A program made the position numbers and the translations under genes. The notes under the pieces are model-generated. The model was not told where the DNA came from. It worked only from the letters and a program-made list of their open reading frames with translations, and ran no database searches. A stretch of DNA of 64,000 nt, from the NCBI GenBank assembly GCA_965248925.1, contig CBDFLE010000004.1, positions 160,001 to 224,000 of the forward strand. The letters are read 5' to 3'. The DNA is from Candidatus Multivoradales bacterium (GTDB taxonomy: Bacteria > Acidobacteriota > Thermoanaerobaculia > Multivoradales > J023). Below are positions 1-37,318 of the stretch, piece by piece. Numbering within the stretch: position 1 is the stretch's first letter; every line of letters begins with the position of its first letter.

Positions 1-2561
1 CCGGCCGGCGCACCGCCGGCTGGCAAGTCCAGGATGCCGGCAACCAGCTGTTGCTCGGCGAAAGCCTGAGCTGGACCCCCGGCTCGCGGCTGGCCACCGC
101 CACCCGCACCGATTTGGGTGGCCTCACCCGTCGTTACGGCTACCAGGACGGTCGCTTGATCTCGGCCATCCAGACTGGCGGCCCGGCCTCCAGCGCCCCG
201 GCCGCCACCGGCTGGGCCGACGTGCCCGCGAGCTTCACCTACAGCTACGACCGAGCCCAGAATCTGCTGGGGATGGACTTCGCACAAAGCTGCGCAGCCA
301 CCCAGGTCGCCCTGCCGCTGGATGGCAGCGGCTGGAACCGCCCGGCTTCAGTAGCCGGCGAAGCGCTCCAGTGGACCGCTCGCCAGGAGCTGGCGAGCAA
401 AGGAAACTTCAACTTCACTTACAGCTGGGACCACCGTCCGATCGAACTCAGGCGCAACGGGGTGACGATCGCCTCCTACAAATACGACTCCCAGGGACGC
501 CGAGTCGAGCGCCAAGTCGGCGCCGACACCTACACCACCGTCTGGTCTGGCTGGCAGCCGATCGAAGAGTACAAGAACGGTCTATTGCACAGCCGCCGCA
601 CCTACGGCGTCGGTCTCGACGAACTTATTCGCCTCGAAAGCGACCTCGACGGCGACGGTGTCTTGGAGCAGGAATACCTACCCTTCTACGACACGATCGG
701 CAACCTCGTCCTACTCACCAACGAAGCCGGCAAGCCCATCGAACGCTACGCCTACGGCCCCTACGGCCGGCAGTGGATCGTCGCCGACTCGACCGCGCCG
801 GTAGTCGAGCAGATCCGCATGAAAGGCGACGAGCTGTGGCTCGAACTCTCAGAAGAAGTGCGGCTCGACCGCCTGCAAGCCGCCGCAAGTGCCGGCACGC
901 TGACGCTGGTCAACGCCCTCGGCGAAGAGATCAGCTTGCAGATCGAGCAGCCCGTCGACAACGGCCGCGCCGCCCGGCGGCGCGTGGTGCTGAGCGAGGC
1001 GCCGAGCCAGAATCCCCCACGCTGGCCAGCGGCGGGCGAGACTGCCACCCTGACTATCCCAGCCGGAGCCCTGGTCGACCTCTTCGAAAACAAAGGCGCG
1101 GCCGTGGCCGAAGCTATGACCTGGCCGACCATCGCGGACGAGATCCACAGCGACACCGCCCCTCCCCAGCTGCTCCAGGCTTGCGTCACACCGCAGAGAA
1201 AAGTCGAGCTGGACTTCAGCGAGCCCCTCGACGAAGCGACCCTCGACACCATCCAGCTCAACAGCGTGGCAACCACCTGGACCGTCTCCGCCGATGGCTA
1301 CCGCCTGACCAGCGGCGCCCTCGCGGTCGGCTCCAACACCCTGCTGGTAGACGGCGAACTGAAAGACCTCGCCGGCACCTCGCTAGCCGGCATCGTGAGC
1401 GAGATCTTCATCGTCAACCCAGGTCAGGGCACGATCATCCACAGCGCCCCCTACGCCGGGCAGATCTCCGCCTCGGCCACCGGTAACCCGTTTGGCTTCA
1501 AAGGCTTGCCGCGAGACCCGGAGAGTGGGCTGATCTATGTGCGCAACCGCTACTACGATCCAGAAATGGGTCGGTGGATCACCTCCGATCCACTGGGACT
1601 CGTCGATGGGCCGGGGCAGTATGCCTTTGTCGGCGGGGATCCGGTGAATTTTGGCGACCCGATGGGACTCTTCAATGTCGGGTTGGGGCCGTGTGGTGCA
1701 GTTGTAGATGCCGAGAGGCGAGCAGAGTGCCTGGCGAAGTCTCGGTTGGGGGCTCAGCAGTTTGACCAGGCTGTCACTACCGCGTTAGCCAATCCCTATG
1801 TACAGGGCAGCCTTCAAGTCATCGGTGGTTGTACCGAAGCGGTTGTCGGAGGTGCTGCCGTGCTCTCCGGCGCGGGGGTCTTGCCGGGTGCTGTCGCTCT
1901 TGCTCATGGCACCGATCTGTGCGGGACGGGAATCTCAACGCTCATCGTGGGCGAGACTCAGGAGACCCTCTTCTATCAGGGTGCAACAGCTGGCTTGGTG
2001 GCAAGCGGAGTCGATCCGTACTATGCTGGTTGGGCCGCGGCAGGGCTGGACCTTGGAGTCGGGATCGGCGCTACTCGGGCTGTTGGGCGCTCGTTTGCGC
2101 GGGCTGCGACCACTGGGACGGCAGCTAAGTCCCGAGTGCCGCGAGTGAACCTCGCAAATCCAGTAAATCCGCTATTTGACAGCGAGGACTTAGTCTACGG
2201 TCTGTACAGGGCGACAACACGAAGCAGAAGGAGCGGCCTCGCTACGTTCAATCCGACCTTGGATCTAAGGAATAGAGCGGGCGGTAGACTTTTGACTTCT
2301 TTCGACAAGCCACCGGAATTGGACTGGGTTCGATTCAGCATACTCAAAATGGACGAAGTGTTGGCAAGCGGAAGAAAGATTCGTTTTAACCTGAGCTACC
2401 TTGAGGATGTTGATAACCTAATTCTCGGCCAAGGGAGGTATGGTGCATCAATTACGGCCAGTGAGCTGCGGTACCTGCGAGATAATTGGGGACGGTTTGA
2501 GAACAACGTTGTTTTTTACAAGCACTATCGAGTGGTGAGGTCGCCATGGCAAGTTCAGTAG
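1..2561 (+). CDS. Rhs/YD-repeat polymorphic toxin A, 5'-partial (type II core); C-terminal toxin domain of unknown family
   Basis: The frame is open from the window start and near-identical to 34385-35990. It has YD repeats and the Rhs core RYYDPEMGRWITSDPLG...DPVNFGDPMG. GC drops after ~1670. A Gly/Ala-rich hydrophobic segment precedes a unique tip. Confidence 0.93.
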   Translation, partial: GRRTAGWQVQDAGNQLLLGESLSWTPGSRLATATRTDLGGLTRRYGYQDGRLISAIQTGGPASSAPAATGWADVPASFTYSYDRAQNLLGMDFAQSCAATQVALPLDGSGWNRPASVAGEALQWTARQELASKGNFNFTYSWDHRPIELRRNGVTIASYKYDSQGRRVERQVGADTYTTVWSGWQPIEEYKNGLLHSRRTYGVGLDELIRLESDLDGDGVLEQEYLPFYDTIGNLVLLTNEAGKPIERYAYGPYGRQWIVADSTAPVVEQIRMKGDELWLELSEEVRLDRLQAAASAGTLTLVNALGEEISLQIEQPVDNGRAARRRVVLSEAPSQNPPRWPAAGETATLTIPAGALVDLFENKGAAVAEAMTWPTIADEIHSDTAPPQLLQACVTPQRKVELDFSEPLDEATLDTIQLNSVATTWTVSADGYRLTSGALAVGSNTLLVDGELKDLAGTSLAGIVSEIFIVNPGQGTIIHSAPYAGQISASATGNPFGFKGLPRDPESGLIYVRNRYYDPEMGRWITSDPLGLVDGPGQYAFVGGDPVNFGDPMGLFNVGLGPCGAVVDAERRAECLAKSRLGAQQFDQAVTTALANPYVQGSLQVIGGCTEAVVGGAAVLSGAGVLPGAVALAHGTDLCGTGISTLIVGETQETLFYQGATAGLVASGVDPYYAGWAAAGLDLGVGIGATRAVGRSFARAATTGTAAKSRVPRVNLANPVNPLFDSEDLVYGLYRATTRSRRSGLATFNPTLDLRNRAGGRLLTSFDKPPELDWVRFSILKMDEVLASGRKIRFNLSYLEDVDNLILGQGRYGASITASELRYLRDNWGRFENNVVFYKHYRVVRSPWQVQ

Positions 2562-3028
2562 TTCTTCCGTTATCAGGCACTGGTTCGATTGAGCTTGTAG
2601 AACAGTGGGTTGATGGTAAAGAGAGAAGACCGCAGCGGTCAACTTACTTTGACTCCCATAGATTTAGAGACTGTGTCCTTTGGTCGGTTTCAGTGCGTTG
2701 CATTGATAGTGAAGTGCGACTGGGGAGTGCAAGTAGAGGTTCTTGGGTTTCTGCGTTCCGGTCCTTCGCGTCGAGCATCAATGCTCTGAAATTTAAGTTT
2801 GAGAAGTTTCTGGGGGAGAACGTCTACTTGTTACTATACCTACACGATGAGTGTGGGCCTTTCGCGAATCTCTATGTCGTTGAATACGGTCGGCGGCAGA
2901 TTGAACTTGGGTGGCAGGTTGGCACAGGTAAAATCGAGAGGAGCGGCATCGAGATTGATCGCGCATTGGTTGAAACTTGGCCGAGTCTTCTTCGAGTGTC
3001 CCGTCCGCCGCGTCCACAATCAGATTAG
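2546..3028 (+). CDS. Putative immunity protein for toxin A
   Basis: Small low-GC ORF overlapping the toxin stop. Its last ~10 codons (VSRPPRPQSD*) are supplied by the TGT repeat that starts at 2997. Confidence 0.75.
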   Translation: MASSVVLPLSGTGSIELVEQWVDGKERRPQRSTYFDSHRFRDCVLWSVSVRCIDSEVRLGSASRGSWVSAFRSFASSINALKFKFEKFLGENVYLLLYLHDECGPFANLYVVEYGRRQIELGWQVGTGKIERSGIEIDRALVETWPSLLRVSRPPRPQSD

Positions 3029-3207
3029 TAGCCAAACGGCCACTTTACTGGTCGCCGGCCCTCATTGATGGACCCGCTCCTTGTCGCTCCTCCTCAGCTC
3101 ACGCCGAGTCAGGAAATCCATGGAAACTTGCGGTGTCCCGTCCGCCGCGTCCACAGCCAAAATTTGTCCCGTCCGCCACGTCCACATGTCCCGTCCGCCG
3201 CGTCCAC
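2997..3207 (+). repeat. Cluster 1 of the TGTCCCGTCCGCCGCGTCCAC element-end motif (4 copies at 2997, 3134, 3165, 3187)
   Basis: Direct repeats read from the sequence. The 5' TGTCCC is invariant and the downstream flanks are truncated to different lengths. Confidence 0.95.
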
Positions 3208-3413
3208 GAACAGAATAGTGGCTAAAAGGCCACTTTATTGACCGTTTAGCCACGCCGGTAAGTCGGCACCGTGCCGATCATCCTCAGCGCATTCTGAAAA
3301 TCTTCCCAGTCGACCGCCCTCTTCGCTCACCGGCCGGAAATCGTGCCCCATGGTCGCACGTCACCGTGGACAGCGCGTCGCAGCAGCCCATCAACTCTCC
3401 AGCCTGAGCCGCT

Positions 3414-4328
3414 CTACTTGGGCGCATGGAAGCCAGAGAGCACTCCTTGCCAGGCGGTCATGAATCGTAGGTGCCCTCGTGAGGGCTGGCGGCCGGTCCA
3501 GATCTCTGCCGGTGTGCAGCCGTCGAGGTTCTGGTGCGGGCGCAGTTCGTTATACCAAAACCGGAAGACATCCAACTGTCGCTGGGTCTTGTGGCCCGCT
3601 GGCAGCGGCTCGCGCCGCCGCCGCAGGCGCTCTTTGAAGGTGCCGAAGAAGCGCTCGATACGTCCGTTCTGCCACGGCGAGGCCAGCTGGGTGCGCTGGT
3701 GGCGAATACCCAGTATGGCCAGCGAAAGCCGGAAGATCCAAGATGTAAAGACTGGCTCGTTGTCAGTGCGCAAGCACTTTGGCTTGCCGCATAGCTCGAT
3801 CGTGTCGAGCAGCTGGCGCACCAGTTCGACCGATGCTTTGGTCTTCACTGCTTGAAGGCTCAAGCAGAGCCGAGTGCCGTGGTCGAGCAGGCCGAAGATG
3901 GTTTCTTTCTGGCCGGCGGTGTTATCAGCGTAGGTGAGATCGGCGGCCCAGATCAGCCGCTTGCCGCCGATCCCAGGTTTTCTCCTGCGGATCTTCCGGC
4001 GCCAAGCGAGAATCTCCAGCTGGTGCTCGTTGAAGATCTTTGCAACGTAGCTCTTGCCCACCGTCATTCGGCGATGGCGGTAGTTGCGATTGAAGGCTGC
4101 CGCGATCGCCCTACAGCCATCGTCGGGCTGCAACGCCTTGAGCCGGATCACCGCTTGGCGCACCCACTTGGGCTTGCGCCGGCAGAAGCCGCGACAAGTC
4201 GTCGGGTCGGGTGGACACTTGGCTCGGCGGCGGTGCTTTGCTCTGGGTCGCAGGGCGAAGGAAGTGAGCGCAAGAATCAGAAGCAACACGAACGCCCAGA
4301 GAAGGGCGCCGGCAAGGTCGGAAGTCAT
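3414..4328 (-). CDS. rve/DDE integrase-core protein (IS481/IS3-like fold) with N-terminal hydrophobic helix, copy 1
   Basis: DDE triad motifs WAADLT, LRTDNEPVF and NGRIERFFGTFK; C-terminal WYNELRPHQNL; HTH-like region upstream. Four intact paralogs in the window. Confidence 0.92.
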   Translation of the reverse strand: MTSDLAGALLWAFVLLLILALTSFALRPRAKHRRRAKCPPDPTTCRGFCRRKPKWVRQAVIRLKALQPDDGCRAIAAAFNRNYRHRRMTVGKSYVAKIFNEHQLEILAWRRKIRRRKPGIGGKRLIWAADLTYADNTAGQKETIFGLLDHGTRLCLSLQAVKTKASVELVRQLLDTIELCGKPKCLRTDNEPVFTSWIFRLSLAILGIRHQRTQLASPWQNGRIERFFGTFKERLRRRREPLPAGHKTQRQLDVFRFWYNELRPHQNLDGCTPAEIWTGRQPSRGHLRFMTAWQGVLSGFHAPK

Positions 4329-4378
4329 TCCTTGAGAATACCGATCTGGCGCAGCCTAGCACGAGGCGCCGCGTTCTC

Positions 4379-4846
4379 TTACTGATCACCTCCCGAATGC
4401 CAGAAGCCCGGCTTGTGCAACTCCAGCACGAAGTCCACCTCGGCGGCCCTCGTCTCGTAGTCACGCCGCTCCTTCGCCGCCGCGATCCTGGCGGCGATCT
4501 CGCTGGCCAGGTGCTCTCCCTTGCCGGGTCGCGTCGGCAAGGCTTCTCTGGCCACATCGCGGAGGACTTGCTCCACCAGCGCCCGGTCCTTCTTCTTCGG
4601 GTCGCTAGCGTGGTTGAGAAACCACAGGATCAGCGCCGCGGGCTCGAGGAAACGGTGGTTGACCGCGGCCAGGAAGGCCGCAGTCAGCTCTTCGATCGGC
4701 GCGCCGGCAGAAAGCTTTATCTCGGCCAGGCTGTCGATGCTGGAATGATTGAGTCGCTGGTTGGCGCCGGTGATCTGAGCGGCGATCTGGCGTACTGTCT
4801 GGTGGATCTGTTCGGTGGTCATAGGCTTTCTGGACAGAGTGGCCAT
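4379..4846 (-). CDS. Conserved 155-aa hypothetical protein of the repeat unit, copy 1
   Basis: AGGAGG RBS upstream on the minus strand. Near-identical intact copies at 26751 and 60693. Confidence 0.8.
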   Translation of the reverse strand: MATLSRKPMTTEQIHQTVRQIAAQITGANQRLNHSSIDSLAEIKLSAGAPIEELTAAFLAAVNHRFLEPAALILWFLNHASDPKKKDRALVEQVLRDVAREALPTRPGKGEHLASEIAARIAAAKERRDYETRAAEVDFVLELHKPGFWHSGGDQ

Positions 4847-4871
4847 TCTGGTGTTCCTCCTAGGTGATCTA

Positions 4872-5009
4872 TTATTGGCGGATATTGACGCCGAAGCCGA
4901 TGGCCATGGTTTCGATGGCTTGGGCCAGGGCGATGTGTTGCTCGGTGAGTTCGGCCTCCGGCGTGGCGGGCAGCTTGAGGGTCAGCAAAGTGCCGCGTAG
5001 ATGAACTTC
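4872..5009 (-). pseudogene. 3' remnant of the 101-aa PCD-fold gene (start codon and RBS deleted)
   Basis: Comparison with the intact copy 61186-61491 shows ~180 bp missing at GAACTTC|TTTGAGG. Confidence 0.8.
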
Positions 5010-5025
5010 TTTGAGGTCACGGTTC

Positions 5026-5071
5026 AAGAAAAAGCACCCTCCGGGCAGAAGGGACCGGTCCTGCCCGGAGG
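5026..5071 (-). terminator. Candidate intrinsic terminator between the two PCD-fold genes
   Basis: CCTCCGGGCAG/CTGCCCGGAGG stem followed on the minus strand by GTGCTTTTTCTT. Present in all four blocks with a variable loop. Confidence 0.5.
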
Positions 5072-5180
5072 GGAGTCGCCGTGGTTGGGGAGGGACCACC
5101 ACGGCCATCACAGGGAATCCAGACCTCCTGACCTACCCCTCCTAACCCTCTGAAAACACAGGACCGCCCCTCAGAGGTGG

Positions 5181-5858
5181 TGCGGACCCAAAACTGTCCG
5201 CTCTTTTCGGTGCCGAGGCATGATCGAGCATGGCACTGACGAGCGAGCACACCGTCCTGTTCCCAGACCACGCCGGGGTCCCCGATGGGGTTGTGGTGAT
5301 CAACGACCGCTGCCGCCTCCAGCAGAGGGGCGGCTATCGGGTGGTGGTGGTCAGCGGCATGCCGCTCGCTCACTTCGCTGCCGGCGACAGGACAGGAGAG
5401 GCCCACGCGATGGTGAGTCTCGTTGAATTGGGCTGGGCACAGCAACGCGAGGTGGCCCTTGCGTTCGCTTGTGATGTGCGGACTGTGCGCCGGAATCAGC
5501 GCCGCTTCGAAGAAGGTGGGCTGGCTGCTCTGGGCCGGCCGCGCGGTTTTCCCCGGGGTCAGTCTCGGGTAGCGCAGGGCCGCCTGGACGCGGTCAACGG
5601 CTGGAAGGCCGAGGATGTGTCGAATCGCGAGATTGGCCGGCGGCTGGGCATCGATGAGAAGGCCGTTCGCAAGCTCGCCAAGCGCCTGGGCTGGAAAGAG
5701 CGGTCGGTAGTGCAGATGACGATGCCCTTCGAGAGTGCGGACCCAAAACTGTCCGCCTCTGATGAGCAGCAGGTCGACGGCCCCCTGAAAACTGCGGATC
5801 TTGCGCTCGACGCTGAGGGTGGCGGTGACCCAGCGGCTGCGGACCCAAAACTGTCCGC
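5181..5858. repeat. Three identical 21-bp copies of TGCGGACCCAAAACTGTCCGC (5181, 5736, 5838)
   Basis: Read directly. The arms GCGGAC/GTCCGC are inverted around an 8-nt spacer. Confidence 0.9.
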
Positions 5859-7623
5859 TTCTGCGTCCGAGCAAGATCAGGTTCCCCTCTCGCTGGACCT
5901 CGATCCAGCGGATCGCGCCAGCGATCGGCTGCTGGCGAGGCTGGGATTCCTCGATGATGCGGCGCCGATCTTCGGAGCGGCGACCCAGCTACCGGGCGCC
6001 GGTGCTCTGCTGGCGATTCCCGCCCTGGTGGACAGCGGCGTGCTCTCCATCGCGCAGGAGCTGTACGGCAGCATCGGGCCGGCCTTCTATGGGCTGCGCA
6101 CCACTCTGGTAACCCTGCTGCTGATGGCACTGTTGCGGGTCAAGCGACCCGAAGGGCTCAAGGAGCGCTCACCCCGGCATTTGGGTCAGCTTCTCGGGCT
6201 CGACCGAGCGCCGGAAGTGAAAACCTTGCGCAACAAGCTCGCTCGGCTGGCCGCGCATGGCCTGGCCGCGGATCTCGGTCGCGCCCTCGCTCAGCGCCGG
6301 GTCGCCACCAGGGGCCATGCCATGGGCTTCCTCTACGTGGACGGGCATGTGCGCGCCTACCACGGTGGCCGAGAGATTCCCAAGACACACGTAGCGCGGA
6401 TGCGGATCGCGATGCCGGCCACCACCGACTACTGGGTCAACGATGCTGAGAGCGAGCCTCTCTTCGTGGTCCCCACCGAGGCCAACAAGGGGCTTGCGAC
6501 GATGCTTCCCCTCATTCTCGAAGAGGTACGAAAGCTACTCGGAGACCGGCGAGTCACCGTCGTCTTCGACCGTGGGGGTTGGAGCCCGAAGCTGTTTGCG
6601 AAGCTCATCGCCAAGAAGTTCGACATCCTCACATACCGAAAGGCCCCCTTTCGTCCGGTGCCGTTGAGCAAGTTCGGGCAGATCAAGGACACCATCCACG
6701 GGCGGAAGCTCGAGTACCTCCTCGCCGATCAGCGTATCTACCTCGAGTATGGCCCGAGGAAGAAGCGCAAGCGGCTGTACCTGCGCCAGGTCACCCGCCT
6801 CTGCGACAACGGCCACCAGACGTCCATCATCACCTCCCGCCGCGACCTCTCCACACTCGAGGTCGCCTACCGCATGTTCGATCGTTGGAGGCAAGAGAAC
6901 TTCTTCAAATACCTGCGCGAAGAATTCGCACTCGATGCCCTGGTGGACTATGGCACCGAGCCAGCGGACGCCGCCCGCGATGTGCCGAATCCCGAGCGCG
7001 GCAAGATCAATGCAGAGCTGCGCAAAGCTCACGCACATCTCGAGCAGCTCCGGGCCCACATCGGGATCGCTGCTCTTGAAAACCGCGAGGATCGGCGGCG
7101 CACGATGCGCGGATTCAAGATCGCCAACGCCGCCATCTCCGCCAGGGTCCGGGCAGCGATAGAGCAGATCACCGAACTCGAGAACCAGCGCGCGACCCTC
7201 CCCGTCCGCGTCCCCGTCCAAGAGGTCGTCGAAGCGGATGTCATCAAGCTGTCCGTCGAGCGCAAGCACCTCACCGATATTCTCAAGATGGTCGCCTACC
7301 AGGCCGAAGGTGATCTTCTCCGGCTCCTATCACCCCACTACCGCCGCACCGAGCAGGAGGGACGCACCCTGATCCAAAGCGCTTTCGCGGCCGGCGGCGA
7401 TATGGAGGTTACCGACACCGTGCTGCTCCTTTCCATCGACCCGCTCAGCTCTCCCCACAAGACGGCGGCGATCGCCGCCGTCTGCGAAGAACTCAACGCT
7501 ACCGCCACCCACTTCCCCGGCACCGAGCTACGGATGCGGTTCGCGATCAAGAAGGCGCCACCCCGGAGCCTGGCCTTCCCAGGGCCTCGGAACACCTCCG
7601 GAGGGGCTCAACCGGACATTTGA
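5230..7623 (+). CDS. 797-aa DDE transposase with N-terminal HTH domains
   Basis: Motifs FLYVDGH, VVFDRGG and RWRQENFFKY; two HTH-like segments (QQREVALAFACDVRTVRR; SNREIGRRLGIDEKAVRK). The ORF fills the IR-bounded element. Confidence 0.9.
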   Translation: MALTSEHTVLFPDHAGVPDGVVVINDRCRLQQRGGYRVVVVSGMPLAHFAAGDRTGEAHAMVSLVELGWAQQREVALAFACDVRTVRRNQRRFEEGGLAALGRPRGFPRGQSRVAQGRLDAVNGWKAEDVSNREIGRRLGIDEKAVRKLAKRLGWKERSVVQMTMPFESADPKLSASDEQQVDGPLKTADLALDAEGGGDPAAADPKLSASASEQDQVPLSLDLDPADRASDRLLARLGFLDDAAPIFGAATQLPGAGALLAIPALVDSGVLSIAQELYGSIGPAFYGLRTTLVTLLLMALLRVKRPEGLKERSPRHLGQLLGLDRAPEVKTLRNKLARLAAHGLAADLGRALAQRRVATRGHAMGFLYVDGHVRAYHGGREIPKTHVARMRIAMPATTDYWVNDAESEPLFVVPTEANKGLATMLPLILEEVRKLLGDRRVTVVFDRGGWSPKLFAKLIAKKFDILTYRKAPFRPVPLSKFGQIKDTIHGRKLEYLLADQRIYLEYGPRKKRKRLYLRQVTRLCDNGHQTSIITSRRDLSTLEVAYRMFDRWRQENFFKYLREEFALDALVDYGTEPADAARDVPNPERGKINAELRKAHAHLEQLRAHIGIAALENREDRRRTMRGFKIANAAISARVRAAIEQITELENQRATLPVRVPVQEVVEADVIKLSVERKHLTDILKMVAYQAEGDLLRLLSPHYRRTEQEGRTLIQSAFAAGGDMEVTDTVLLLSIDPLSSPHKTAAIAAVCEELNATATHFPGTELRMRFAIKKAPPRSLAFPGPRNTSGGAQPDI

Positions 7624-7913
7624 GAAAAAGGGTATGTCAGGAGTTCTGGACTCAGGGAGCGAGCGAGGTCGAAGTCCGCCGGCCGCAGACGGGCCGGCGC
7701 CGCCGGCCCGATCCGTACCGAGACCCAGCGGCCGACCATTGCGGCTCTGGGTTCTAGGTTGGTGAGTTCACCGCGATAGAACACCCACTCGACGAAGATC
7801 AGAGAATCGCGCCAAGAATCAAAGAGATATTTGCGGGTGATCTTTTGTTGCCCTTTGATTTGTCGCCAATCGGGTAGGGTGTTTAGGGCCTGTTGGATCT
7901 CTTCGTCGGTCAT
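7608..7913 (-). CDS. PCD/DCoH-fold protein 1, C-terminal tail replaced by IS sequence
   Basis: The pattern EEIQQALNTLPDW...ITRKYLFDSWRDSLIFV...DFDLARSL resembles pterin-4a-carbinolamine dehydratase but lacks the HHP histidines. The original tail is at 5017-5119. Confidence 0.7.
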   Translation of the reverse strand: MTDEEIQQALNTLPDWRQIKGQQKITRKYLFDSWRDSLIFVEWVFYRGELTNLEPRAAMVGRWVSVRIGPAAPARLRPADFDLARSLSPELLTYPFSQMSG

Positions 7914-8051
7914 CGCTTGCTCCTTGGGTCTAGGAGGATGGTAGGCGATGACAGGAGGGATTGAGCAGACGTCCTGCTTTTCAAGCGCTCACTCCGCGCG
8001 GCCCGTCCCGTGATCGTCGGACTACCTGGCGGCTGGTTGATTCTGAGGCTT

Positions 8052-8104
8052 GAGGACTGTGAGTCCTCTTCATTGAGTAAGAGAGAGGACTGAGAGTCCT
8101 CTCT
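8052..8104. promoter_or_regulatory. Paired palindromic operators GAGGACT-GWG-AGTCCTC, 33 bp apart, in the divergent intergenic region
   Basis: Two 17-bp palindromes at 8052 and 8085, conserved at 42165/42198 and 62011/62044, next to an XRE-HTH gene. Confidence 0.7.
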
Positions 8105-8196
8105 GTCCAAAAACTCCGTCGTTTTTGCTGTCGAGGCCCCGGAGAGCCGTTGGTTGCGATACTCTTTGGGCCTAATCAATATCTCTGGAGGGAGCA

Positions 8197-9534
8197 ATGT
8201 TTGGCGAATCAGCGAGCGAGCAGCACCAGCGATGCCTACAAACGCTGAAGGCCCATGTGCGACGGCATCCGATGTCGGTAAGGGAGATCGAGCGGCGCCT
8301 GGGATATTCTCCGTCCTACTTGCACCGGATCCTTCGTGGCAAAGTAGGGTTGTCGTTTGAGGGCTTGTTGCAGCTGCTCGAAGTCGTGGATATGAGCTTC
8401 GAGGAGCTGGCGATCAAGACGGCGCGAGTGGATGCTGAGGGATTGTTGGAGAGGGCCTTACCTCCGGGCACGGTAGATCCGCCAGAGATTGAGGAGCTGG
8501 CGTTGATAGCCAGTCAGCTCATCGTCGGCGAGTATACTGACAAGGTCCACGATTCGGCATGCCAGGCACTGTTCCAGGCGGTGAGGGATGCTGATGATCA
8601 GCGTTACTCGGCCCCATGGCTAGCTGCCGCGAAGGTGCGCCCAATAGCAACTCATGTTGCTCCTAGAATAGCTGGAATAGTGGCGTTGGAGCTCTTCTGC
8701 CGAGCGACCAGCGTCTACGGGTCTTGCTGCCGCATCGGTGGAAGCGTTCAGCACGCGATCCGTACCCTGATCACTACCAGCCAGCTCGCTCGGTCGTGCG
8801 GGTCGAGTCATCGGGCGGACTGGCTTCTTCGTGCTGCGTCAGCCTTGAATAGTCACAGTGAGCATGATGCCGGTCTGGAAGTCGCTATCGTAGCTGGGGA
8901 GATTTTTGAGAGATTGGGCGACAGTGCGGGCGTAGGCTCGTCTTTCATCAGCAAAGCGATTTCGATGACACTTATACCGGACAGCGAGCGAGCCGAGGCG
9001 GCCTTTCGCACAGCGCTTCTTCATATTCCACTGAATGGGCATTCACGTCTGCTGATAGCAGCGCATCACGGTTTGGCGAAGCTTCTAGTCGAACGGGAGG
9101 ACTTAGAGCAGGCGGGTTCCCACCTTGAAATAGTGTCATCGAAGATTTATAAGTCGGACACCTATAGTCGGGGAATGTTGGCCAGAACCTTAGGTAACTG
9201 GCATAGGAAGAAGGGACACAGGGAAGAGGCGATAGAGAACCTACGGCAAGCGGAGGGTTTCTTTCTTGAGATCAATCCCTTCGACACGGCGTTTGTCGTG
9301 CTGGACCAGATCGATTTCTGTTTGGAAGATGGCCGACTCCAAGAGGCGGTCAGAATCGCGGAAGACACGGCCGATGTGATCGAGCTACTCAAATCGAATC
9401 CGGTCGCTGGTGGCATTCTCATGAGACTACGAGACGCTGCCCAGAAGGGAAGGTTGACTGCTCGGCTGATTGAAGCTGCTCGTAAGAAGATAGCCGGCGG
9501 GCGCCGGTTCGGAATCCGCCCGCCGGTAGCCTAG
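8197..9534 (+). CDS. XRE-type HTH + TPR-like transcriptional regulator, copy 1
   Basis: N-terminal MSVREIERRLGYSPSYLHRILRG HTH; helical TPR-like repeats (AEAAFRTAL, AHHGLAKLL, EEAIENLRQA); GGAGGGAG RBS. Confidence 0.85.
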   Translation: MFGESASEQHQRCLQTLKAHVRRHPMSVREIERRLGYSPSYLHRILRGKVGLSFEGLLQLLEVVDMSFEELAIKTARVDAEGLLERALPPGTVDPPEIEELALIASQLIVGEYTDKVHDSACQALFQAVRDADDQRYSAPWLAAAKVRPIATHVAPRIAGIVALELFCRATSVYGSCCRIGGSVQHAIRTLITTSQLARSCGSSHRADWLLRAASALNSHSEHDAGLEVAIVAGEIFERLGDSAGVGSSFISKAISMTLIPDSERAEAAFRTALLHIPLNGHSRLLIAAHHGLAKLLVEREDLEQAGSHLEIVSSKIYKSDTYSRGMLARTLGNWHRKKGHREEAIENLRQAEGFFLEINPFDTAFVVLDQIDFCLEDGRLQEAVRIAEDTADVIELLKSNPVAGGILMRLRDAAQKGRLTARLIEAARKKIAGGRRFGIRPPVA

Positions 9535-24900: not shown

Positions 24901-25073
24901 ATTGGAAAAGCGATGCTGTTTTTGACGATGCAACGTCACGGCAAAACGATTCTTTGAAGTGGTTAGTCGGCCAACTGCGAAGGGTCTATGGTGTTGAGAA
25001 GATGTATGTTTACCGCCACCCGAGCATTGCGCGAAAGAATGCGGGCGAATCACAATCACTGGTGTGGGAGTAG
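9936..25073 (+). CDS. Giant (5045 aa) secreted Ig-repeat/YD-repeat Rhs toxin B with C-terminal PGRP/Amidase_2-type N-acetylmuramoyl-L-alanine amidase
   Basis: Signal peptide ending AQA; DxxAP/EG-N Ig-like repeats; LVIVD-like repeats; DUF6531-like RTYRSQ...GPLGPGW; YD repeats; core RYLDPEMGRFISMDPMG; tip with LVVHQT, AHFLI, AFHVG, SIGIE and YRHP. Confidence 0.93.
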   Translation: MPKQPSLRFLLILQVSLGVLLLSASAAQAAPVFVSVTPVDGTLSSAASVTLTIEVQAAASLQVDGQAVTTVDPSGTVWTAGPYSLSEGERVFVLIAEDASGVQAQQLHRVVRDSLPPVLSLSQPAAGAIVASSPLIVVGTAVDAHLAAVRVGGQVAALSGASFSHSLVLVEGEQTFTVEASDSLGQSGQQSVTVTLDSQPPTVALLEGAQPLAADALFNRSVVLSFSVTDATATTVEALLDGASFTSGTTVSAAGSHVFSVTATDAAGQPTSVSRSFEIDLTAPSFLSFTPSDGTLLADSQVTLSGVVEGAAALSVEGQAASLVGQSWTAGALQLIEGEREISILATDLAGNSASFTLHLERDATAPQLIGLVPSLDTVLATSPVAVSGTASDAHLLEVRVGGELASLTGSQFSHPAVVLVEGENLLPIVATDQVGHQATAELRLVLDTQAPTLSLLVAGVPLQGGAVFAGPVTPEISASDATEVVTSATLDGATYLPGTVIDGDGLHQLSVSASDAAGHQATVLVSFSLDLAAPVFADLAPVDGSVDSGAQVTLTGRAPGAVSVSVDGQAATLAGDGFSAGPFNLSEGERVFLLAATDSGGNVTQLTHHLTRDSTAPQLTLGQPAAGALLGSTSVDVSGTASDPRLDQVTVNGVLAELSGGAFLARQVPLIEGDNVLTVVAADTVGNEVQTTRSVTVDTTPPTVVITDPASGTITPEAGLTLSGSAADPHLDRVEVAGVGASLAGGQWSLAVDLQEGSNTFTVEAFDPLGHSTSASVTVTRDSSAPEIHIESPAEGLYSPAANLTVSGTVVAEPDLTVTVGGVAATVAGSSWSAAAVPLVEGENRLIARVTDALGNQGTHTRVVWRDNQAPEFLSSIPAAGALELPAGSSFRLRFSEPLAAPSGGAYSLSTLAGQALASSAEIDGDDLVITPQAALPSATELRLVLGAGLVDRAGNALAAAHTLAFTVVDGGSPAAPQLDAYASYLCAPATTLAGSAEPGAWIEVDGGASVGAGQVADDGRFAISVVLLPEGPNHLTVIAVDAAGNPSPATSADIVHDCTAPEVLGASREAAGFRIALSETVDPLSLSGSVRVYDGGMEIAGTESATASELIWTASGALPAVALLVEVEGALADLAGNPLAFPYRQLFDIALGGSFFSGTAIDDASGRPLAGVRAVVTASDGVALAEPWPEQTSGEDGRLVIALPAGTHDVTFARPGYTPVFRVVTTVDGQGTDVFDPRLTPAAAAVSIDASGGLVEGSSEVGTAPRLTLPLAGLASAAAVRLTAVGGQGLAALLPYGWAPRGAVWVDLSAVNLDSSATLDLPVTSADGTVLEAVTLDLATLQWRSLGVVTVSGGEVTMTVDGEGAWAAVEADSGALAPPPAVAGQMLGSSAAPPSGGVTSASLSFDPEVVLPTQRSWVQVLYGLAAEVPSGVPLTLSIEERLELLDGSVRRISPYSADLVLYRDSLGDPTSRFRLRPSAAARSLPVRLGAEQVSVRSYGDETVRGNVLGPDGGVVSSAEGDQVVLPTGALEEPTAVTLSRRTVADLPLAPPAGGTVDGVLELDLAGRRLLLPAELSWSLTPAPAAGTPGLLLGVVEVEGEPRYRAIAELEATATGWRTQAIDAADLAWPGVLEGGLYVFLRLDAAPRFVRGMVLDPGGAPVVGAVVESTTVPWLQISAAEGGYVLPILLDAATLSARRAVTGNAVAVALPAGVAAERVDLDLPLQIVAPWVEQITPSAGTSGVLLGVNPVVRFSEPVDRASLDGAIELRQGGVAVAVALDHQGALVTLLPQATLVPGSEYEVWVGAAVRDLQGYGLSGSVSVLFSTEVVATPAGVDRGRIFLVEPDAQGLARVEGVAGAAPAGTLVFVENLTSFSTTESVQSAGDGSFLLTIGASLEDQLLLHVLIDGGNEVVILLTPFLGADLRTGLAGTGAGEFTTADGITVRYSAGTFAGPSRVKVTPIAMGTLAAAEDFSELVTFRLEIAGAQPLKPLEVTMAAPAGTAPAGTAAGSLWLLRRQLEIADLPWMVHAELALDGGELSTIHTVGEAQSANSGEVGGTKSGTFDVPAPLRVLSPAEAAARLPRSGFLSALPPADPAALVEVEPPLAGLGAAKATVAPTLADYLVGVSRPGVYQAARAEVELGWIAFPFRGAQDLVVRSAELPEVVLALDAVNRSFLPLGAGALPVELSPTPLNADPAAPGTKAPPAGEPKADSVEIQVLDFAGVELYRLVVDAPTQQLVLLTPSQLPNAGPPMPLGGGPLRFHAFSAAPGTSEIAAGISAELEGNSLTVRGEAGSAGAGVAVRLIDLESSNVLSATASPGGSFSVVASPSQLGDQLVLAISAKLTPGQPLRLDFSEALQEEAPGIRVEHDGMALPITKEPLGSWAQLRIHGGWQAGKTYNLRLDSTMADAAGLPWDANMTLPFEVAESSAGTSFALDEAHDIARLGSLLFVAAGADGLAVLDASDPRQLKNWLAAETYVDLVAEPGLPVRGVATDSHGRVVAVGGGVARRGVLLILDPQELPQGAATVPAAAILGRTLLTEPQLAGSGAPPLLIGRPLEVEIFNRDQSTTWTLGEAVPPGLTLAPPSPPSGTAAVSLTVSGMATAERPVTLRNLTTGERDSARVGSAGGGGAGSFSLSLSVQRGDRLELLRNELSLAYVAGYDAGVVTVDLNAVEAADEEVDDPWDAFDLLRYNTHYFVPTEVLCSTFENDQRFDVIDARVLPAASEGEPWSVLALVENYGLLSLGASVATPLEKLAYRDALCGEVDGNRKLGGLDVLPGYRFDRNGDGVLDDTEPERDYALLTNTVGGGGRGWLLIVDVTERDELRRVGRIELPGPATRVTADAIGRRALVSGLGGGVYIVDLDRWPELGGGGGTPQIWSSDRVVERLSFGEDVRAPTLVAPELGLAFAGGVARGVTPLSTGLPRLSLVTSGKKGLRRVARLAPFGAPSAPESAEEGAEEIPGLIRVQAQLPGGLADAEGKIRVDLAGIGPAGLPLRGLGEGLMDEPVAELKDDKALVLQRQSDNPLSEGYNVFLSDPVVLLADVRASAHFERSEAEKKVCRRCDLVDEGVYTAADLPPNELHVELLSGHQVRASYSAAFATSLAGLYDADLLAGYAVVADSVPWDLSPSPHQEPVLNAATSAMAAPGTLLHSGEMTRQAIDLSLQGRGLDLALVRTYRSQTISNGPLGPGWDHGYRLRLRLLPNGDIDFFDGTGRRETFTLEDDGKLMPPVGRFVQLKKYAEGYTLIGSGYQRWRFDRWGRLVSMIDSVRTSEETGNEITFHYDAHSRLARIHDDLDRNTFLHYDDEGRLEKIVDFSDRDFLYHYDAQGRLTSFETPVVDLGSGSSQRLSTTYAYHAAGTGLAGQLSQRDDLKSETDAKSQTWLTLRYQDSDGNGRPDALKEQDWGAETVHLAFDFDGQQTTLTDRRGKVWTYHLNAAGQATSLVDPKSANGSWQYDGEGLLTRATRPLGGATQIEYPADTSGDRRGRGDAQRMVKIADGRGPNGSPSELVTTWEYHSPTHQPSRKTEPGGAVTVWERTDNGLPEQIVRAAGAAEQSITGLSYNAHGQLLEATNPNGHVTRHSYFTSGSEEGYLKQTEVDPGGLSLVTIYERNDRGQLEAITDPRGVRHETELNRLDWPLAQVAAASTSGFLAPLGYRTTWRYDANGDISEVSSPFGDGSTTTIEVRTYGVLGELLSAEREVAPGGRRIVETSTYDPNLNLLTHVDGAGQRVEREYDERGQLSLVRRGLGTGALATPIVEHQSYDLDGHLSSQRDGRGMTWEAERDGHGRVLRSRSPLGHYREQRYNPAGDLAALLAYDAGGQLLVESAFAYDLLHRRTETTAWRWTPDPQQPDPSRTAEKTHHRWDAASNLLEVEDPLGRLTRTSYDAAERPERVELPEGNVRRTTYDSGGLPITEHADEVDPAGGSHTITYQSTFDALGRRLSRQDGIFANRTLWTLDARGQVTLEIDPTGRFTRRSYDGLNRMTREVRPEGISVDYSWDDASRLTTYTDARGQATRWEYDGVGRRTKVVYPDQQQERWVYDPTNNVTERHDPRGLVVHQSWDEAGRLQSRTVTQSPGGAVEGPMVEAFSFDGLDRLIRAQSGSVVTERVYNSLSHLASETNAGRTTSWQRNALGEPTRTSYPSGRQVERTFDNLGRVSTVGESGAPASIASYGYRGPAIARKDLGNGLQGNMSFDGLRRMVDNNFSLAGESATFQESLAWSPRSLKTGQSRGDLGGAGRVFAYDGAQRLIESARVPPALAQRPGNTPPDVALLASLPERTSYQHDNAMNLIRSTTTQRGIEQITDLPPDNRNRPSAFGGVALEWDAAGNMKRKGDMQMYYDLHNRLTRVTRSGVEVAKYHYDAFNRRVKIQTPVYSEESVWDGWQSMETYRNGVLASRRVYGNGIDEILQHEVDLNGDGTVEQTYYPITDSTGNVAMLTSSNGKPIERYFYSPYGERRVLVDLTAPSNHQLLIDTSGMLRIELSEEVSIEELESGLADGRIKLERVSDGSQIPLTLDLPVQGGPLARRRLVLAPATPPAAGEQVRFQVAPSALLDTFHNSAVSGIDHTWAWSATPSVLQDTAPPRVSEVVVRSGVVEIVFTEEVDPAAAAAIVQLDGQPASWTLADDRYTVIATTALSAGSHTLDIGTAALDLAGTGLAQPFSLDLEIGAAANPQSANLTAKSPAGAKAESGDSFVAYQDVDLLFSDTSAVGNVYGFHGRPLDRETGLLYFRNRYLDPEMGRFISMDPMGYVDGPSGYQFAGSSPGDGRDPLGLCVGRLRETGFCKGVNDLLTGYGPVVNDNAVLKEYETVRREAIRVVDGLVFSPRVGHQIYPNLHHGSMSSVVGLVVHQTTAATATSTYNTYSSPERTVGAHFLIERNGKIVQTALVNQQAFHVGTMKSKCLDEFEACAVAVGPFVALSAALDIAEFLQSLAMENHSPRALSAYEKKKSFPFRYPSNADSIGIEAVGATRDPATGAYPYWKSDAVFDDATSRQNDSLKWLVGQLRRVYGVEKMYVYRHPSIARKNAGESQSLVWE

Positions 25074-25075
25074 AG

Positions 25076-25537
25076 ATGCCTAGTCGCCCTGTCAATACGC
25101 TTGGACACTTATTCGTCACCGCCTTCCTGTTTCTAGGTCTAGGCGGAAATCCTATGGATGTCGAGAAGGAGAACGAGCCGTCTCGCTTTGTAGATGTGTA
25201 CGGGCGGAAGTTCACTATAGAAATCCAGGAGCTTAAAGGGGACTTCGAGGAAAGGGTTTGTCAGCAGTTTCATCTGGAAGCTAAAGATGTGAAGTTTTTT
25301 TTCGACAATGCTGTATTAGTTGACGGTTACACTCTAGAGAAGGAGTATCCATGGTACCCCTGTGGTTTGAACGGGAAAATAACCATTGGCGAGCAAATCT
25401 TCGAGTGGGAGATTACGCCCGGGGGCAAGGGTGTGCTAGAGCCTATTTCTGGAGCTGAAGAGTCAGTCTGCCTAGTGTGTGATCTAGGCTGTGAGGATGT
25501 TTTTCCGCATGGTGGGAATATGTTCAGGGGCGAATAG
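25076..25537 (+). CDS. Putative exported immunity protein for amidase toxin B
   Basis: ATG 2 nt after the toxin stop with a GGAG RBS; N-terminal hydrophobic segment; several Cys; low GC. Confidence 0.8.
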   Translation: MPSRPVNTLGHLFVTAFLFLGLGGNPMDVEKENEPSRFVDVYGRKFTIEIQELKGDFEERVCQQFHLEAKDVKFFFDNAVLVDGYTLEKEYPWYPCGLNGKITIGEQIFEWEITPGGKGVLEPISGAEESVCLVCDLGCEDVFPHGGNMFRGE

Positions 25538-25541: not shown

Positions 25542-25579
25542 TGTCCCGTCCGCCGCGTTGTCCCGTCCGCCGCGTCCGC
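25542..25579 (+). repeat. Cluster 2 of the TGT element-end motif (17-nt truncated copy at 25542, full copy at 25559)
   Basis: Starts 4 nt after the immunity stop codon. Confidence 0.95.
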
Positions 25580-25785
25580 GATCAAAATCGTAGCCAAACG
25601 GCCACTTTATTGGTCGCCTTCCTTCGTTGATGGACCCGCTCCTTGTCGCTCCTCTTCAGCTCACGCCGAGAATTTCCCAGACCGACGGCGATCTTCGCTA
25701 GCTGCCGAGAATCCGAGGCGCCTGAGCGAGCCTCACCGTGGACAGCGCGTCGCAGCAGCCCATCAACTCGCCAGCCTGAGCCGCT

Positions 25786-26700
25786 CTACTTGGGCGCATA
25801 GAAGCCAGAGAGCACTCCTTGCCAGGCGGTCATGAATCGTAGGTGCCCCCGTGAGGGCTTGCGGCCGGTCCAGACCTCGGCCGGTGTGCAGCCGTCGAGG
25901 TTCTGATGCGGGCGCAGTTCGTTATACCAAAACCGGAAGACATCCAACTGTCGCTGGGTCTTGTGGCCCGCTGGCAGCGGCTCGCGCCGCCGCCGCAGGC
26001 GCTCTTTGAAGGTGCCGAAGAAGCGCTCGATACGTCCGTTCTGCCACGGCGAGGCCAGCTGGGTGCGCTGGTGGCGAATACCCAGTATGGCCAGCGAAAG
26101 CCGGAAGATCCAAGATGTAAAGACTGGCTCGTTGTCAGTGCGCAAGCACTTTGGCTTGCCGCATAGCTCGATCGTGTCGAGCAGCTGGCGCACCAGTTCG
26201 ACCGATGCTTTGGTCTTCACTGCTTGAAGGCTCAAGCAGAGCCGAGTGCCGTGGTCGAGCAGGCCGAAGATGGTTTCTTTCTGGCCGGCGGTGTTATCAG
26301 CGTAGGTGAGATCGGCGGCCCAGATCAGCCGCTTGCCGCCGATCCCAGGTTTTCTCCTGCGGATCTTCCGGCGCCAAGCGAGAATCTCCAGCTGGTGCTC
26401 GTTGAAGATCTTTGCAACGTAGCTCTTGCCCACCGTCATTCGGCGATGGCGGTAGTTGCGATTGAAGGCTGCCGCGATCGCCCTACAGCCATCGTCGGGC
26501 TGCAACGCCTTGAGCCGGATCACCGCTTGGCGCACCCACTTGGGCTTGCGCCGGCAGAAGCCGCGATAAGTCGTTGGGTCGGGTGGACACTTGGCTCGGC
26601 GGCGGTGCTTCGCCCTGGGTTGCAGGGCGAGCGAAGTGAGCGCAAGAATCAGAAGCAACACGAACGCCCAGAGCAGGACGCCGGCAAGGTCGGAAGTCAT
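25786..26700 (-). CDS. rve/DDE integrase with N-terminal hydrophobic helix, copy 2
   Basis: Near-identical to copy 1; DDE motifs intact. Confidence 0.92.
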   Translation of the reverse strand: MTSDLAGVLLWAFVLLLILALTSLALQPRAKHRRRAKCPPDPTTYRGFCRRKPKWVRQAVIRLKALQPDDGCRAIAAAFNRNYRHRRMTVGKSYVAKIFNEHQLEILAWRRKIRRRKPGIGGKRLIWAADLTYADNTAGQKETIFGLLDHGTRLCLSLQAVKTKASVELVRQLLDTIELCGKPKCLRTDNEPVFTSWIFRLSLAILGIRHQRTQLASPWQNGRIERFFGTFKERLRRRREPLPAGHKTQRQLDVFRFWYNELRPHQNLDGCTPAEVWTGRKPSRGHLRFMTAWQGVLSGFYAPK

Positions 26701-27240: not shown

Positions 27241-27381
27241 CTATTGTTGGCGGATATTGACGCCGAAGCCGATGGCCATGGTTTCGATGGCTTGGGCCAG
27301 GGCGATGTGTTGCTCGGTGAGTTCGGCCTCCGGCGTGGCGGGCAGCTTGAGGGTCAGCAAAGTGCCTCGTAGATGAACTTC
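27241..27381 (-). pseudogene. 3' remnant of the 101-aa PCD-fold gene
   Basis: Same deletion junction as in block 1 (GAACTTC|TTTGAGG). Confidence 0.8.
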
Positions 27382-27388
27382 TTTGAGG

Positions 27389-27754
27389 TCACGGTTCAAG
27401 AAAAAGCACCCTCCGGGCAGAAGGGGCTGATTCTGCCCGGAGGGGTGGAGTCGCCGTGGTTGGGGAGGGACCACCACGGCCATCACAGGGACTCAGGGAG
27501 CGAGCGAGGTCGAAATCTTCCGGCCGCAGACGGGCCGGTGCCACCGGCCCGATCCGTACCGAGACCCAGCGGCCGACCATCGCGGCTCTGGGTTCTAGGT
27601 TGGTGAGTTCACCGCGATAAAACACCCACTCGACGAAGATCAGGGAATCGCGCCAAGAGTCAAAGAGGTATTTGCGGGTGATCTTTTGTTGCCCTTTGAT
27701 TTGTCGCCAATCGGGTAGGGTGTTTAGGGCCTGTTGGATCTCTTCATCGGTCAT
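27389..27754 (-). CDS. PCD/DCoH-fold protein 1, copy 2
   Basis: Starts MTDEEIQQ after an AAGGAG RBS; paralog of 61510-61872. Confidence 0.75.
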   Translation of the reverse strand: MTDEEIQQALNTLPDWRQIKGQQKITRKYLFDSWRDSLIFVEWVFYRGELTNLEPRAAMVGRWVSVRIGPVAPARLRPEDFDLARSLSPCDGRGGPSPTTATPPLRAESAPSARRVLFLEP

Positions 27755-27847
27755 CACTCTCTCCTTGGGTCTAGGAGGATGGTAAAGCCAACAGATTTGA
27801 TCTGTGCAAATGATCTGGGCTGCGCCATATCCTGGAGCTGTGCATCT

Positions 27848-27909
27848 TGGACCTCCGCCTCCGAGGTCCATTCAGGAGTCAAAGAACCCGATATTGGACT
27901 CTGAGTGCA
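27848..27909. promoter_or_regulatory. Variant palindromes upstream of the divergent regulator
   Basis: TGGACCTC-N7-GAGGTCCA (27848-27870) and the imperfect TGGACTC-T-GAGTGCA (27895-27909) sit where the other blocks have the GAGGACT operators. Confidence 0.45.
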
Positions 27910-28028
27910 CACTGGTTTGACATGGCTGCGCACTCTCGTGCAGCTTTGATGTTTTTCGTTCCAAGATTTCGGGGCGAGTCCAACGATGCGCTATACTTTG
28001 CCCCTGACCCAACTATCTGGAGGAGAGC

Positions 28029-29360: not shown

Positions 29361-29463
29361 TCTAACCTCCCGGCATTATTGCAGGCCCGTACAGCGTGGC
29401 ACTGACTTTGCGCAGATAGCTCACCTGTGATCTCCTATTCCACGACATCGCCAGAGGGTCGGA

Positions 29464-37256: not shown

Positions 37257-37318
37257 CCAAACGACCACTTTATTGGTCGCCGTCCCTCATTAGATGGTGT
37301 CCCGTCCGCCGCGTCCAC
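37222..37318 (+). repeat. Cluster 3 of the TGT element-end motif (copies at 37222 and 37298)
   Basis: Two 21-nt copies. The 55 nt between them is a truncated version of the flank that follows the second copy. Confidence 0.95.

Follow-up and report, generated by a model that had tools for sequence, protein, structure and literature searches.

SRPPRP-type tails of immunity-position proteins in an Rhs array of Candidatus Multivoradales as read-through into the end of a transposase element

The Rhs modules and the element terminus

The window, which is the whole 64,000-nt stretch of DNA analysed here (Candidatus Multivoradales bacterium, assembly GCA_965248925.1, contig CBDFLE010000004.1, positions 160,001–224,000), contains four modules, designated A to D. 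In each of them an Rhs toxin gene and a small open reading frame (ORF) in the immunity position behind it lie tail-to-tail with a transposase element of about 1.3 kb. The SRPPRP tails carried by some of the immunity-position proteins are read-through into the end of this element. To the left of TGTCCC the four modules have different sequences, and from TGTCCC rightward they stay conserved into the transposase gene, indicating that TGTCCC is the exact outer terminus of the element. The conserved block extends for about 227 nt, from the terminus to the stop codon of a 304-aa minus-strand gene. The features of the four modules are the following:

3–2561, plus strand: Rhs toxin gene A, 3′ part, open at the window start; PxxxxDPxGL at about 1641, then a variable C-terminal domain of 296 aa
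2546–3028, plus strand: immunity-position gene A; native to 2996, with the last 10 codons and TAG from the element end
2997–3133, plus strand: truncated end copy of module A, 137 nt, a third sequence variant, starting exactly at TGTCCC
3134–3186, plus strand: two truncated end copies of module A, 31 and 22 nt, each starting with TGTCCC
3187–3413, plus strand: full element end of module A, from the terminus to the transposase stop, 227 nt
3414–4328, minus strand: DDE transposase of module A, 304 aa, rve_3; N-terminal hydrophobic helix; D130, D189 and E225
4379–4846, minus strand: ORF of 155 aa upstream of the transposase; matches no family; conserved only among the modules of this genome
9936–25073, plus strand: Rhs toxin gene B, 5045 aa; Ig-like domains, RHS repeats and an Amidase_2 C-terminal domain
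25064–25537, plus strand: immunity-position gene B; ends on its own stop, 4 nt ahead of the first terminus
25542–25785, plus strand: end of module B; 17-nt truncated copy (25542–25558), full end from 25559
25786–26700, minus strand: transposase copy of module B, 304 aa, intact
29464–36942, plus strand: Rhs toxin gene C, 2492 aa
36942–37256, plus strand: immunity-position gene C; native to 37221, with the last 11 codons and stop from the element end
37222–37524, plus strand: end of module C; 76-nt truncated copy (37222–37297), full end from 37298
37525–38439, minus strand: transposase copy of module C, 304 aa, intact
44049–58976, plus strand: Rhs toxin gene D, 4975 aa
58969–59433, plus strand: immunity-position gene D; start codon ATG overlapping the stop of the toxin gene; ends on its own stop, 9 nt ahead of the first terminus
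59443–59727, plus strand: end of module D; truncated copies of 13 nt (59443–59455) and 45 nt (59456–59500), full end from 59501
59728–60642, minus strand: transposase copy of module D, 304 aa, intact

As read directly from the sequence, the 22-nt motif TGTCCCGTCCGCCGCGTCCACA has its T at 2997, inside the immunity A ORF. The C terminus of immunity A consists of LLRV, up to the junction, and SRPPRPQSD beyond it, with the stop codon TAG at 3026–3028. Immunity C, where the terminus lies at 37222, likewise ends with VPKL followed by SRPPRPQPKL, and both genes read the motif in the common codon register nTG TCC CGT CCG CCG CGT CCA. The stop codon of immunity B occupies 25535–25537, ahead of the first TGTCCC at 25542; that of immunity D (best start ATG 58969) occupies 59431–59433, ahead of TGTCCC at 59443. 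The original prediction, made from the sequence of this window, stated that a repeat is read in the same frame by A and C, which end inside it, and begins 4 and 9 nt past the stops of B and D. All of this is seen directly in the sequence, the stop TAG lying about 30 nt inside. The repeat itself is real, but its description was too narrow, since it is not free-standing and represents the terminus of the transposase element.

Recurrence of the motif is far above chance. At up to three mismatches it matches ten sites in the window against none in 100 shuffles, and across the 8-Mb genome, at up to two mismatches, it has 24 forward and no reverse matches, a backwards control giving none. The exact 12-nt core is found 27 times forward and never in reverse, and all 28 genome-wide matches of the 22-mer at up to four substitutions are on the plus strand. 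The window is part of a larger array of about 14 Rhs-type ORFs, each with a terminus cluster close behind it, which spans 133–284 kb of contig C4 and 1–62 kb of contig C5 in a single orientation throughout. The junction between immunity C and the motif is spanned without any difference by short-read-derived contigs from four runs of one sample; these contigs give no independent support because the runs probably represent the sample of origin.

The toxin genes B, C and D contain RHS_repeat domains (E-values of 1e-61 to 1e-65). The Rhs A fragment itself has no Pfam match, and its first 300 nt are 98% identical to Rhs C. The PxxxxDPxGL boundary is present in Rhs A and B, and a pattern search for it was negative in C and D. 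The small ORFs behind the toxins have a G+C content of 44–49% in a background of 62–67% (0.49 for immunity A against 0.62–0.67 in its surroundings), and profile scans matched them to no family.

In the full end of module A, a small hairpin (AGTGGC..GCCACT) lies at +30; the TAG immediately precedes the stem and shares the first base of the latter. This hairpin is not significant in comparison with shuffled sequences (z of −0.4 to −2.1). A role of the end region as a terminator was considered and rejected, as a consensus scan gave a candidate on the minus strand only and the region folds no better than shuffles. An Rfam search over 2400–5200 yielded no match at E ≤1.

Junctions, stacked ends and reading frame

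The element terminus abuts mutually unrelated sequences: 12 immunity-position genes, an IS3-family transposase gene, the element's own transposase gene and its own truncated ends. The latter, 12–137 nt long and each opening exactly with TGTCCC, are found ahead of full ends in 10 of the genome's 15 junction clusters, forming stacks three deep in module A, one deep in B and C, two deep in D and up to four deep elsewhere. Different end variants are mixed among the layers, and a 496-nt partial element stands ahead of another full end (C5:36610–37105). Microhomology, judged by eye, occurs at only two of about 14 stack junctions (3 nt and 1 nt). Template switching is not favoured, given that microhomology is nearly absent. 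Repeated joining of one terminus to unrelated sequences without homology is the pattern of strand transfer by a transposase, rather than of template switching or homologous exchange, and the predicted absence of homology at the junction is thereby borne out.

The IS3-family transposase gene cut by the terminus (190 bits, cutoff 160) is broken off 327 nt short of the right end of its IS. The corresponding IS3-family element (C4:264087–265413, locus L163), which has more than 20 copies in the genome, is inserted 12 nt inside an older element end. This arrangement gives the order of events: the IS3 copy entered the older end and was then cut by a new terminus.

The leftmost terminus of all 15 clusters was examined in three frames. 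Twelve clusters lie behind immunity-position genes and one behind the IS3-type gene. Seven of the 12 immunity-position genes run into the terminus, and the other five end 2, 4, 7, 9 and 14 nt before it. The eight ORFs that enter the terminus are immunity A, immunity C, four other immunity-position genes, a second copy of immunity C and the IS3 gene. In every case translation ends at +29 or +32, in the frame that yields SRPPRP (nTG TCC CGT CCG), with TAG as the stop codon or, once, TGA, while the alternative frames would add 23 or more than 90 codons. Under equal use of the frames, the occurrence of eight out of eight in one frame has P ~1.5e-4. A preference for G at position −1 was tested as the cause and rejected: the preference is weak, and only 42% of G fall at codon position 1 (P of codon position 1 given G, 0.42), so it cannot account for the frame bias. 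The expectation that the element end supplies the stop codon thus holds for every ORF that enters it, each ending about 30 nt inside in the short-tail frame. None of the 12 immunity-position genes has a 3′ untranslated region left behind it, which supports the earlier idea of trimming and rescue by an in-frame stop.

The position of the cut is not fixed. A recent duplicate of module C (C5:51432–61123 against window 27380–37071; 9,692 nt, 99.64% identical) has an intact Rhs frame of 2,503 codons and an immunity gene cut at residue 42. Immunity is therefore not always kept intact, and the proposal that the junction settles at the closest position preserving it does not survive this second copy, cut as it is behind an intact toxin gene. 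The full immunity C copy in the window may protect in trans against the duplicate toxin.

An exhaustive HMMER search of 1.8 billion representatives found a sole homolog of immunity A, P0003 (library-wide E-value of 3.9e-4). Its alignment with immunity A (46% identity) extends to residue 149 and so falls one residue short of the junction; the 25 residues that follow are unrelated. Word-index searches with immunity A and C returned the query itself only, and immunity C had no match in 100 related genomes. The anticipated alignment of homologs up to the junction, with other C termini beyond it, was accordingly obtained for A, from one distant homolog, and not for C, which yielded no homolog. For the P0003 locus, a single metagenome match was obtained; it lay antisense to an iron-sulfur protein gene and was discarded as fortuitous. 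A paralog of immunity B, 53% identical (C5:48703–49035, within the region C5:48559–49332), continues for about 85 residues past the point where B stops before meeting a terminus. It was dropped as an uncut yardstick, these extra residues failing to calibrate the truncation. Immunity B may be a shortened form despite having its own stop codon.

The transposase and its relatives in other bacteria

The 304-aa protein matches rve_3 with 58 bits (cutoff 26.5) and, more weakly, DDE_Tnp_IS240 (27.5 bits, cutoff 27). Its scores with the IS481 family (NCBIfam NF033577, 108.4 bits) and the IS3 family (NF033516, 94.2 bits) are below the curated cutoffs of 224 and 160, respectively; the neighbouring IS3-type gene, serving as a positive control, reaches 190 bits. 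D130, D189 and E225 are invariant in 57 aligned family members, and the D-36-E spacing agrees with a DDE enzyme. Nine intact paralogs occur in the genome, with dS up to 0.28 and a median dN/dS of 0.17 (33 pairs), so that by its sequence the transposase looks alive and maintained under purifying selection. The element bodies are mosaics of blocks at 100% and 91–93% identity, and the end variants are mosaic as well. The N terminus comprises a hydrophobic helix, then a basic stretch and a KPxW...RLKA...GCR motif. The helix scores as membrane-spanning in 34 of 72 family ORFs (above 1.6 in a 19-residue Kyte-Doolittle window), and such a membrane-anchor-like segment is unusual for a transposase. A family member is named “integrase core domain-containing protein” by the NCBI pipeline (PGAP).

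A scan of one genome per species revealed 359 relatives, of which 77 loci were kept and examined. They belong to Acidobacteriota, Nitrospirae, Gamma- and Betaproteobacteria (Nitrincola, Pseudoduganella, Stenotrophomonas, Gallionella, Thiobacillus), Fibrobacteria and a Saccharibacteria bin. The core TGTCC(C/T)GTCC lies past the transposase stop, at a median of 232 nt, in 62 of the 73 loci with a recognisable ORF, and 16 loci have at least two copies. Stacks are also present in Nitrincola, Thiobacillus and Pseudoduganella, and in an acidobacterial bin they are six deep. In relatives from the same family as the window genome, variants of the motif recur every 4–7 kb, in one orientation per contig, between 5′-truncated Rhs fragments with small downstream genes.

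The association with toxins was measured on the largest ORF converging on each of 51 termini. In 22 of them this ORF carries a toxin domain: RHS repeats in 14, CdiA-type domains (Fil_haemagg_2, DUF637, PT-VENN) in seven and Tle1 in one. The largest converging ORFs of the other termini are housekeeping genes (7 of 51) or have no match (22 of 51). On a Nitrincola chromosome (L108), the terminus at about 5117 cuts directly into a cdiA fragment in the DUF637 region, with no immunity gene between, and the frame runs 18 codons into the element. On an Undibacterium plasmid (L162, NZ_AP018442.1:127727–168629), the genes opposite a family member are a hypothetical one and a giant one, about 39 kb long, for a “tandem-95 repeat protein,” suggesting that the association may extend to other giant secreted proteins.

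An inverted copy of the terminus is absent from the 8-Mb genome, as determined by core and 22-mer scans, and local alignment found no inverted match in the window at 4300–5130 or 7640–8250. In 50 family loci, the 20-nt terminus of each element scores 11.72 out of 20 upstream of its transposase, compared with 11.72 and 11.64 in controls, and 49 of the 50 are negative. The exception, L102, is a two-ended copy of 1.39 kb (L102:3541–4990) with inverted ends matching at 17 of 20 positions; a 62-nt partial end is stacked before its left end and obscures the flanks, where a target-site duplication would lie. In the arrays, no left end can be defined for such a duplication to flank. L102 stands directly behind a small two-gene pair, whose second product looks by eye like a helix-turn-helix (HTH) antitoxin. 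In the array of one relative, the copies cease to be homologous about 55 nt ahead of the transposase start codon, and in the Gallionella group conservation begins at the ATG itself, leaving no element-like left flank. In four loci of this group (L131, L152, L148 and L160) the transposase gene lies directly behind genes on the same strand, the 3′ ends of which look by eye like type I secretion genes (membrane-fusion protein, ABC ATPase). By this evidence the family has its origin in ordinary insertion sequences (IS), and its copies beside toxin cassettes retain a single end.

Between the transposase and the Rhs gene, all four modules contain a gene block (7608–9534, 27389–29360, 41665–43647 and 61510–63499). 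Its minus strand carries a pterin-4a-carbinolamine-dehydratase-like gene and an ORF of 95 aa; its plus strand codes for a 445-aa regulator with HTH and tetratricopeptide repeat (TPR) domains. Two modules are interrupted by other mobile elements. Module A contains a 2.54-kb insertion sequence (window 5115–7653) coding for a 797-aa Transposase_29 protein, more than 30 copies of which, about 99.7% identical, are scattered through the genome. In module C, the region of the 155-aa ORF is interrupted by an IS21-type element (window 38787–41119) with a Mu-transposase-C/rve gene and an IstB ATPase gene.

Origin of the junctions and their significance

The reading that agrees best with these data, and which we regard as probable, is one-ended, homology-free joining by the transposase, filtered by selection. 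We infer the catalytic events, the pathway and the role of selection from the footprints as follows. The transposase would cut exactly at the TGTCCC terminus, and the cut end would be joined without homology to DNA near another copy of the same end, located on the sister chromosome, in a neighbouring module or in incoming DNA. Homologous recombination, within the repeated element body or the toxin core, would resolve the other side. A strike just inside the partner end would place a truncated copy before the full one, forming a layer of the stack; a strike just outside it would delete the flank and erode the immunity gene. Since leftward moves and deletions would be irreversible, the end would advance as far as the 3′ terminal part of the upstream gene and then penetrate it. 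Selection would then keep outcomes with a working gene and a frame that meets the TAG about 30 nt inside the end, and as a result of selection for this early-TAG frame the element would appear to supply the last 9–10 codons (SRPPRPQ..) and the stop. Two other routes could leave these footprints as well: the next downstream element could cause an adjacent deletion, or a circle could be copied out between ends in direct repeat, with subsequent recombination within the toxin core.

Several observations weigh against this reading. The activity of the transposase is deduced only, from conserved residues and substitution rates, the small ORFs behind the toxins are taken for immunity genes from their position alone, and the apparent loss of native C termini is suggested by a single distant homolog of immunity A. 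Abutment is looser across the family: of 60 termini, six have gaps of 0–20 nt, 12 of 21–60 nt and 18 of 61–200 nt, and in relatives of the same family most upstream genes end 2–39 nt before the terminus (start of the stop codon 5–42 nt upstream). The in-frame cases are few (eight); one ORF enters through a degenerate 22-nt partial copy, and two, namely the IS3 gene left truncated and the 42-residue remnant of immunity C, ought to be free of selection for function. The two ends of L102 place the root of the family among ordinary two-ended insertion sequences, so that one-endedness could be decay. Finally, every joint and loose end in the contigs of the four runs from one sample is an arrangement already present in the assembly.

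Alternatively, an ordinary two-ended IS would have inserted once behind an ancestral Rhs-immunity pair and the module would have been amplified by unequal crossing-over. The stacks would then be nested self-insertions collapsed by homologous recombination, the left ends would have decayed, and the frame bias would reflect chance together with weak selection. The modules are in fact large direct repeats, running from the terminus through the transposase, the 155-aa ORF, the dehydratase-like gene and the HTH-TPR regulator gene to the 5′ part of the Rhs gene. The mosaic element bodies (blocks at 100% against 91–93%) are typical of gene conversion, and the 17 of 20 match of the inverted ends in L102 and the IS3/IS481 type of the transposase point in the same direction. 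However, this genome and 49 of the 50 family loci lack an inverted terminus, though the right one has been conserved from phylum to phylum and purifying selection acts on the transposases, which remain intact. Different end variants are combined within the stacks, and a frame bias of eight out of eight is unlikely by chance. Moreover, the junction is different in each module, so the junctions were made after amplification. We therefore consider this origin unlikely.

The link to Rhs, CdiA and Tle1 toxin cassettes in different phyla (22 of 51 cases) would also be expected of a domesticated transposase whose terminus serves as the boundary site of a system for capture or exchange of toxin-immunity cassettes, resembling attC sites or IS26 units, the end deliberately giving each incoming cassette a stop codon and a terminator. 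Relatives carry arrays of toxin fragment, immunity gene, terminus and transposase with a period of 4–7 kb, and in the Gallionella group nothing resembling the left flank of an element precedes the transposase ATG, the point at which conservation sets in. The conserved N-terminal hydrophobic helix is unusual, and the TAG sits at the foot of the small hairpin. Against such a system, the hairpin is not significant and no plus-strand terminator was scored; 7 of the 51 largest converging ORFs are housekeeping genes, the ends of other lineages have no early stop in any frame, and the assembled contigs contain no circular or exchanged forms, although they only reproduce the assembly. A domesticated system of this kind thus appears distinctly improbable. 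That the SRPPRP tail is a native, functional C-terminal peptide, with the DNA motif conserved as its coding sequence, is scarcely credible: tails of the SRP(P/R/S)RP type are present on eight proteins of this genome, but the same motif follows the stops of five other genes, occurs in non-coding tandem stacks, forms the end of the IS3 gene that was truncated and has been conserved alongside the transposase in phyla whose upstream genes are not read into it, and the sole homolog of immunity A has a different tail.

Among known elements, the IS3 and IS481 families are the closest, sharing the DDE triad with D-36-E spacing, a terminus starting with TG, a size of about 1.3 kb and the best profile matches. 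IS3-family elements transpose by a copy-out-paste-in pathway. The element described here differs from both families in its sub-cutoff scores, in the lack of an inverted left end in 49 of 50 loci and in this genome, in the N-terminal hydrophobic helix and in its consistent tail-to-tail placement with polymorphic toxin cassettes; the terminal inverted repeats at both ends that define a classical insertion sequence are not found. One-ended transposition of the Tn3 family and capture of the ISEcp1 type also combine one precise end with a variable other boundary and mobilise adjacent genes. Their transposase families are unrelated to this one, and there is no sign here of a moved transposition unit. 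In Bacteroidales, rAID-1 systems are integron-like immunity arrays with a repeated, folded site beside a tyrosine recombinase. They are similar in that cassettes for interbacterial defence are punctuated by a repeated site, but each cassette of the present array has one copy of its enzyme, which is a DDE transposase. Compared with an integron, the adjacent enzyme is a DDE transposase instead of IntI, and the repeat is a linear terminus with truncated copies instead of a folded imperfect palindrome.

Orphan toxin-immunity arrays in rhs and cdi loci have been loosely tied to “transposase and integrase genes” (Poole et al., 2011, PMC3150448; Ruhe et al., 2016, PMC4927057). Such arrays, and the C-terminal displacement considered with them, share with the present one the tandem 5′-truncated toxin fragments with immunity genes; the passages of these two papers that deal with the arrays describe no particular transposase family, no terminus conserved 3′ of the immunity gene, no stacked ends and no donation of stop codons. 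In Burkholderia thailandensis, the bcpAIOB locus for contact-dependent inhibition (CDI) moves as a circle, the “megacircle,” by means of one IS2-like copy, according to the relevant part of Ocasio and Cotter (2019, PMC6350997). Direct-oriented transposase copies interleaved with cargo are common to this megacircle, to IS26 translocatable units and to the array studied here. Those systems, as far as the same source covers them, have two intact inverted ends and precise junctions, whereas here there is one end, the joints are imprecise and the contigs contain no circle. In the relevant passages of a large comparative study of polymorphic toxins, transposases are mentioned once, in another context (PMC3482391). 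Full-text literature searches yielded no account of the transposase family, its one-sided terminus, the stacked ends or the donated stops, ISfinder and subscription journals being outside their scope.

The tails themselves call for caution in annotation, as SRPPRPQ.. sequences at the ends of small toxin-adjacent proteins are derived from a mobile element and are not native. In addition, a toxin gene can remain intact next to an immunity gene that has been truncated, if another copy of the latter is present elsewhere. The more interesting result is a conserved family of one-ended DDE elements tied to Rhs and CdiA cassettes across phyla. The entry of cassettes into rhs and cdi loci, and the growth and shrinkage of orphan arrays, are usually ascribed to homologous recombination and unspecified “transposases and integrases.” A concrete enzyme family, a DNA end and a set of footprints, namely stacked ends, trimmed immunity genes and donated stops, can now be searched for in any genome.

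It is possible, and we suggest it only tentatively, that this is an undescribed, widespread family of one-ended DDE recombinases dedicated to polymorphic-toxin cassettes, the enzyme pairing directly repeated ends to copy out, delete or insert cassettes. Each cassette would then carry its own enzyme gene and one end, joined without homology 3′ of the immunity gene and giving it its stop codon, with Rhs cassettes served in Acidobacteriota and other phyla and CdiA cassettes in Proteobacteria. If true, the family would represent a transposase-based counterpart of the integron for interbacterial weapons.
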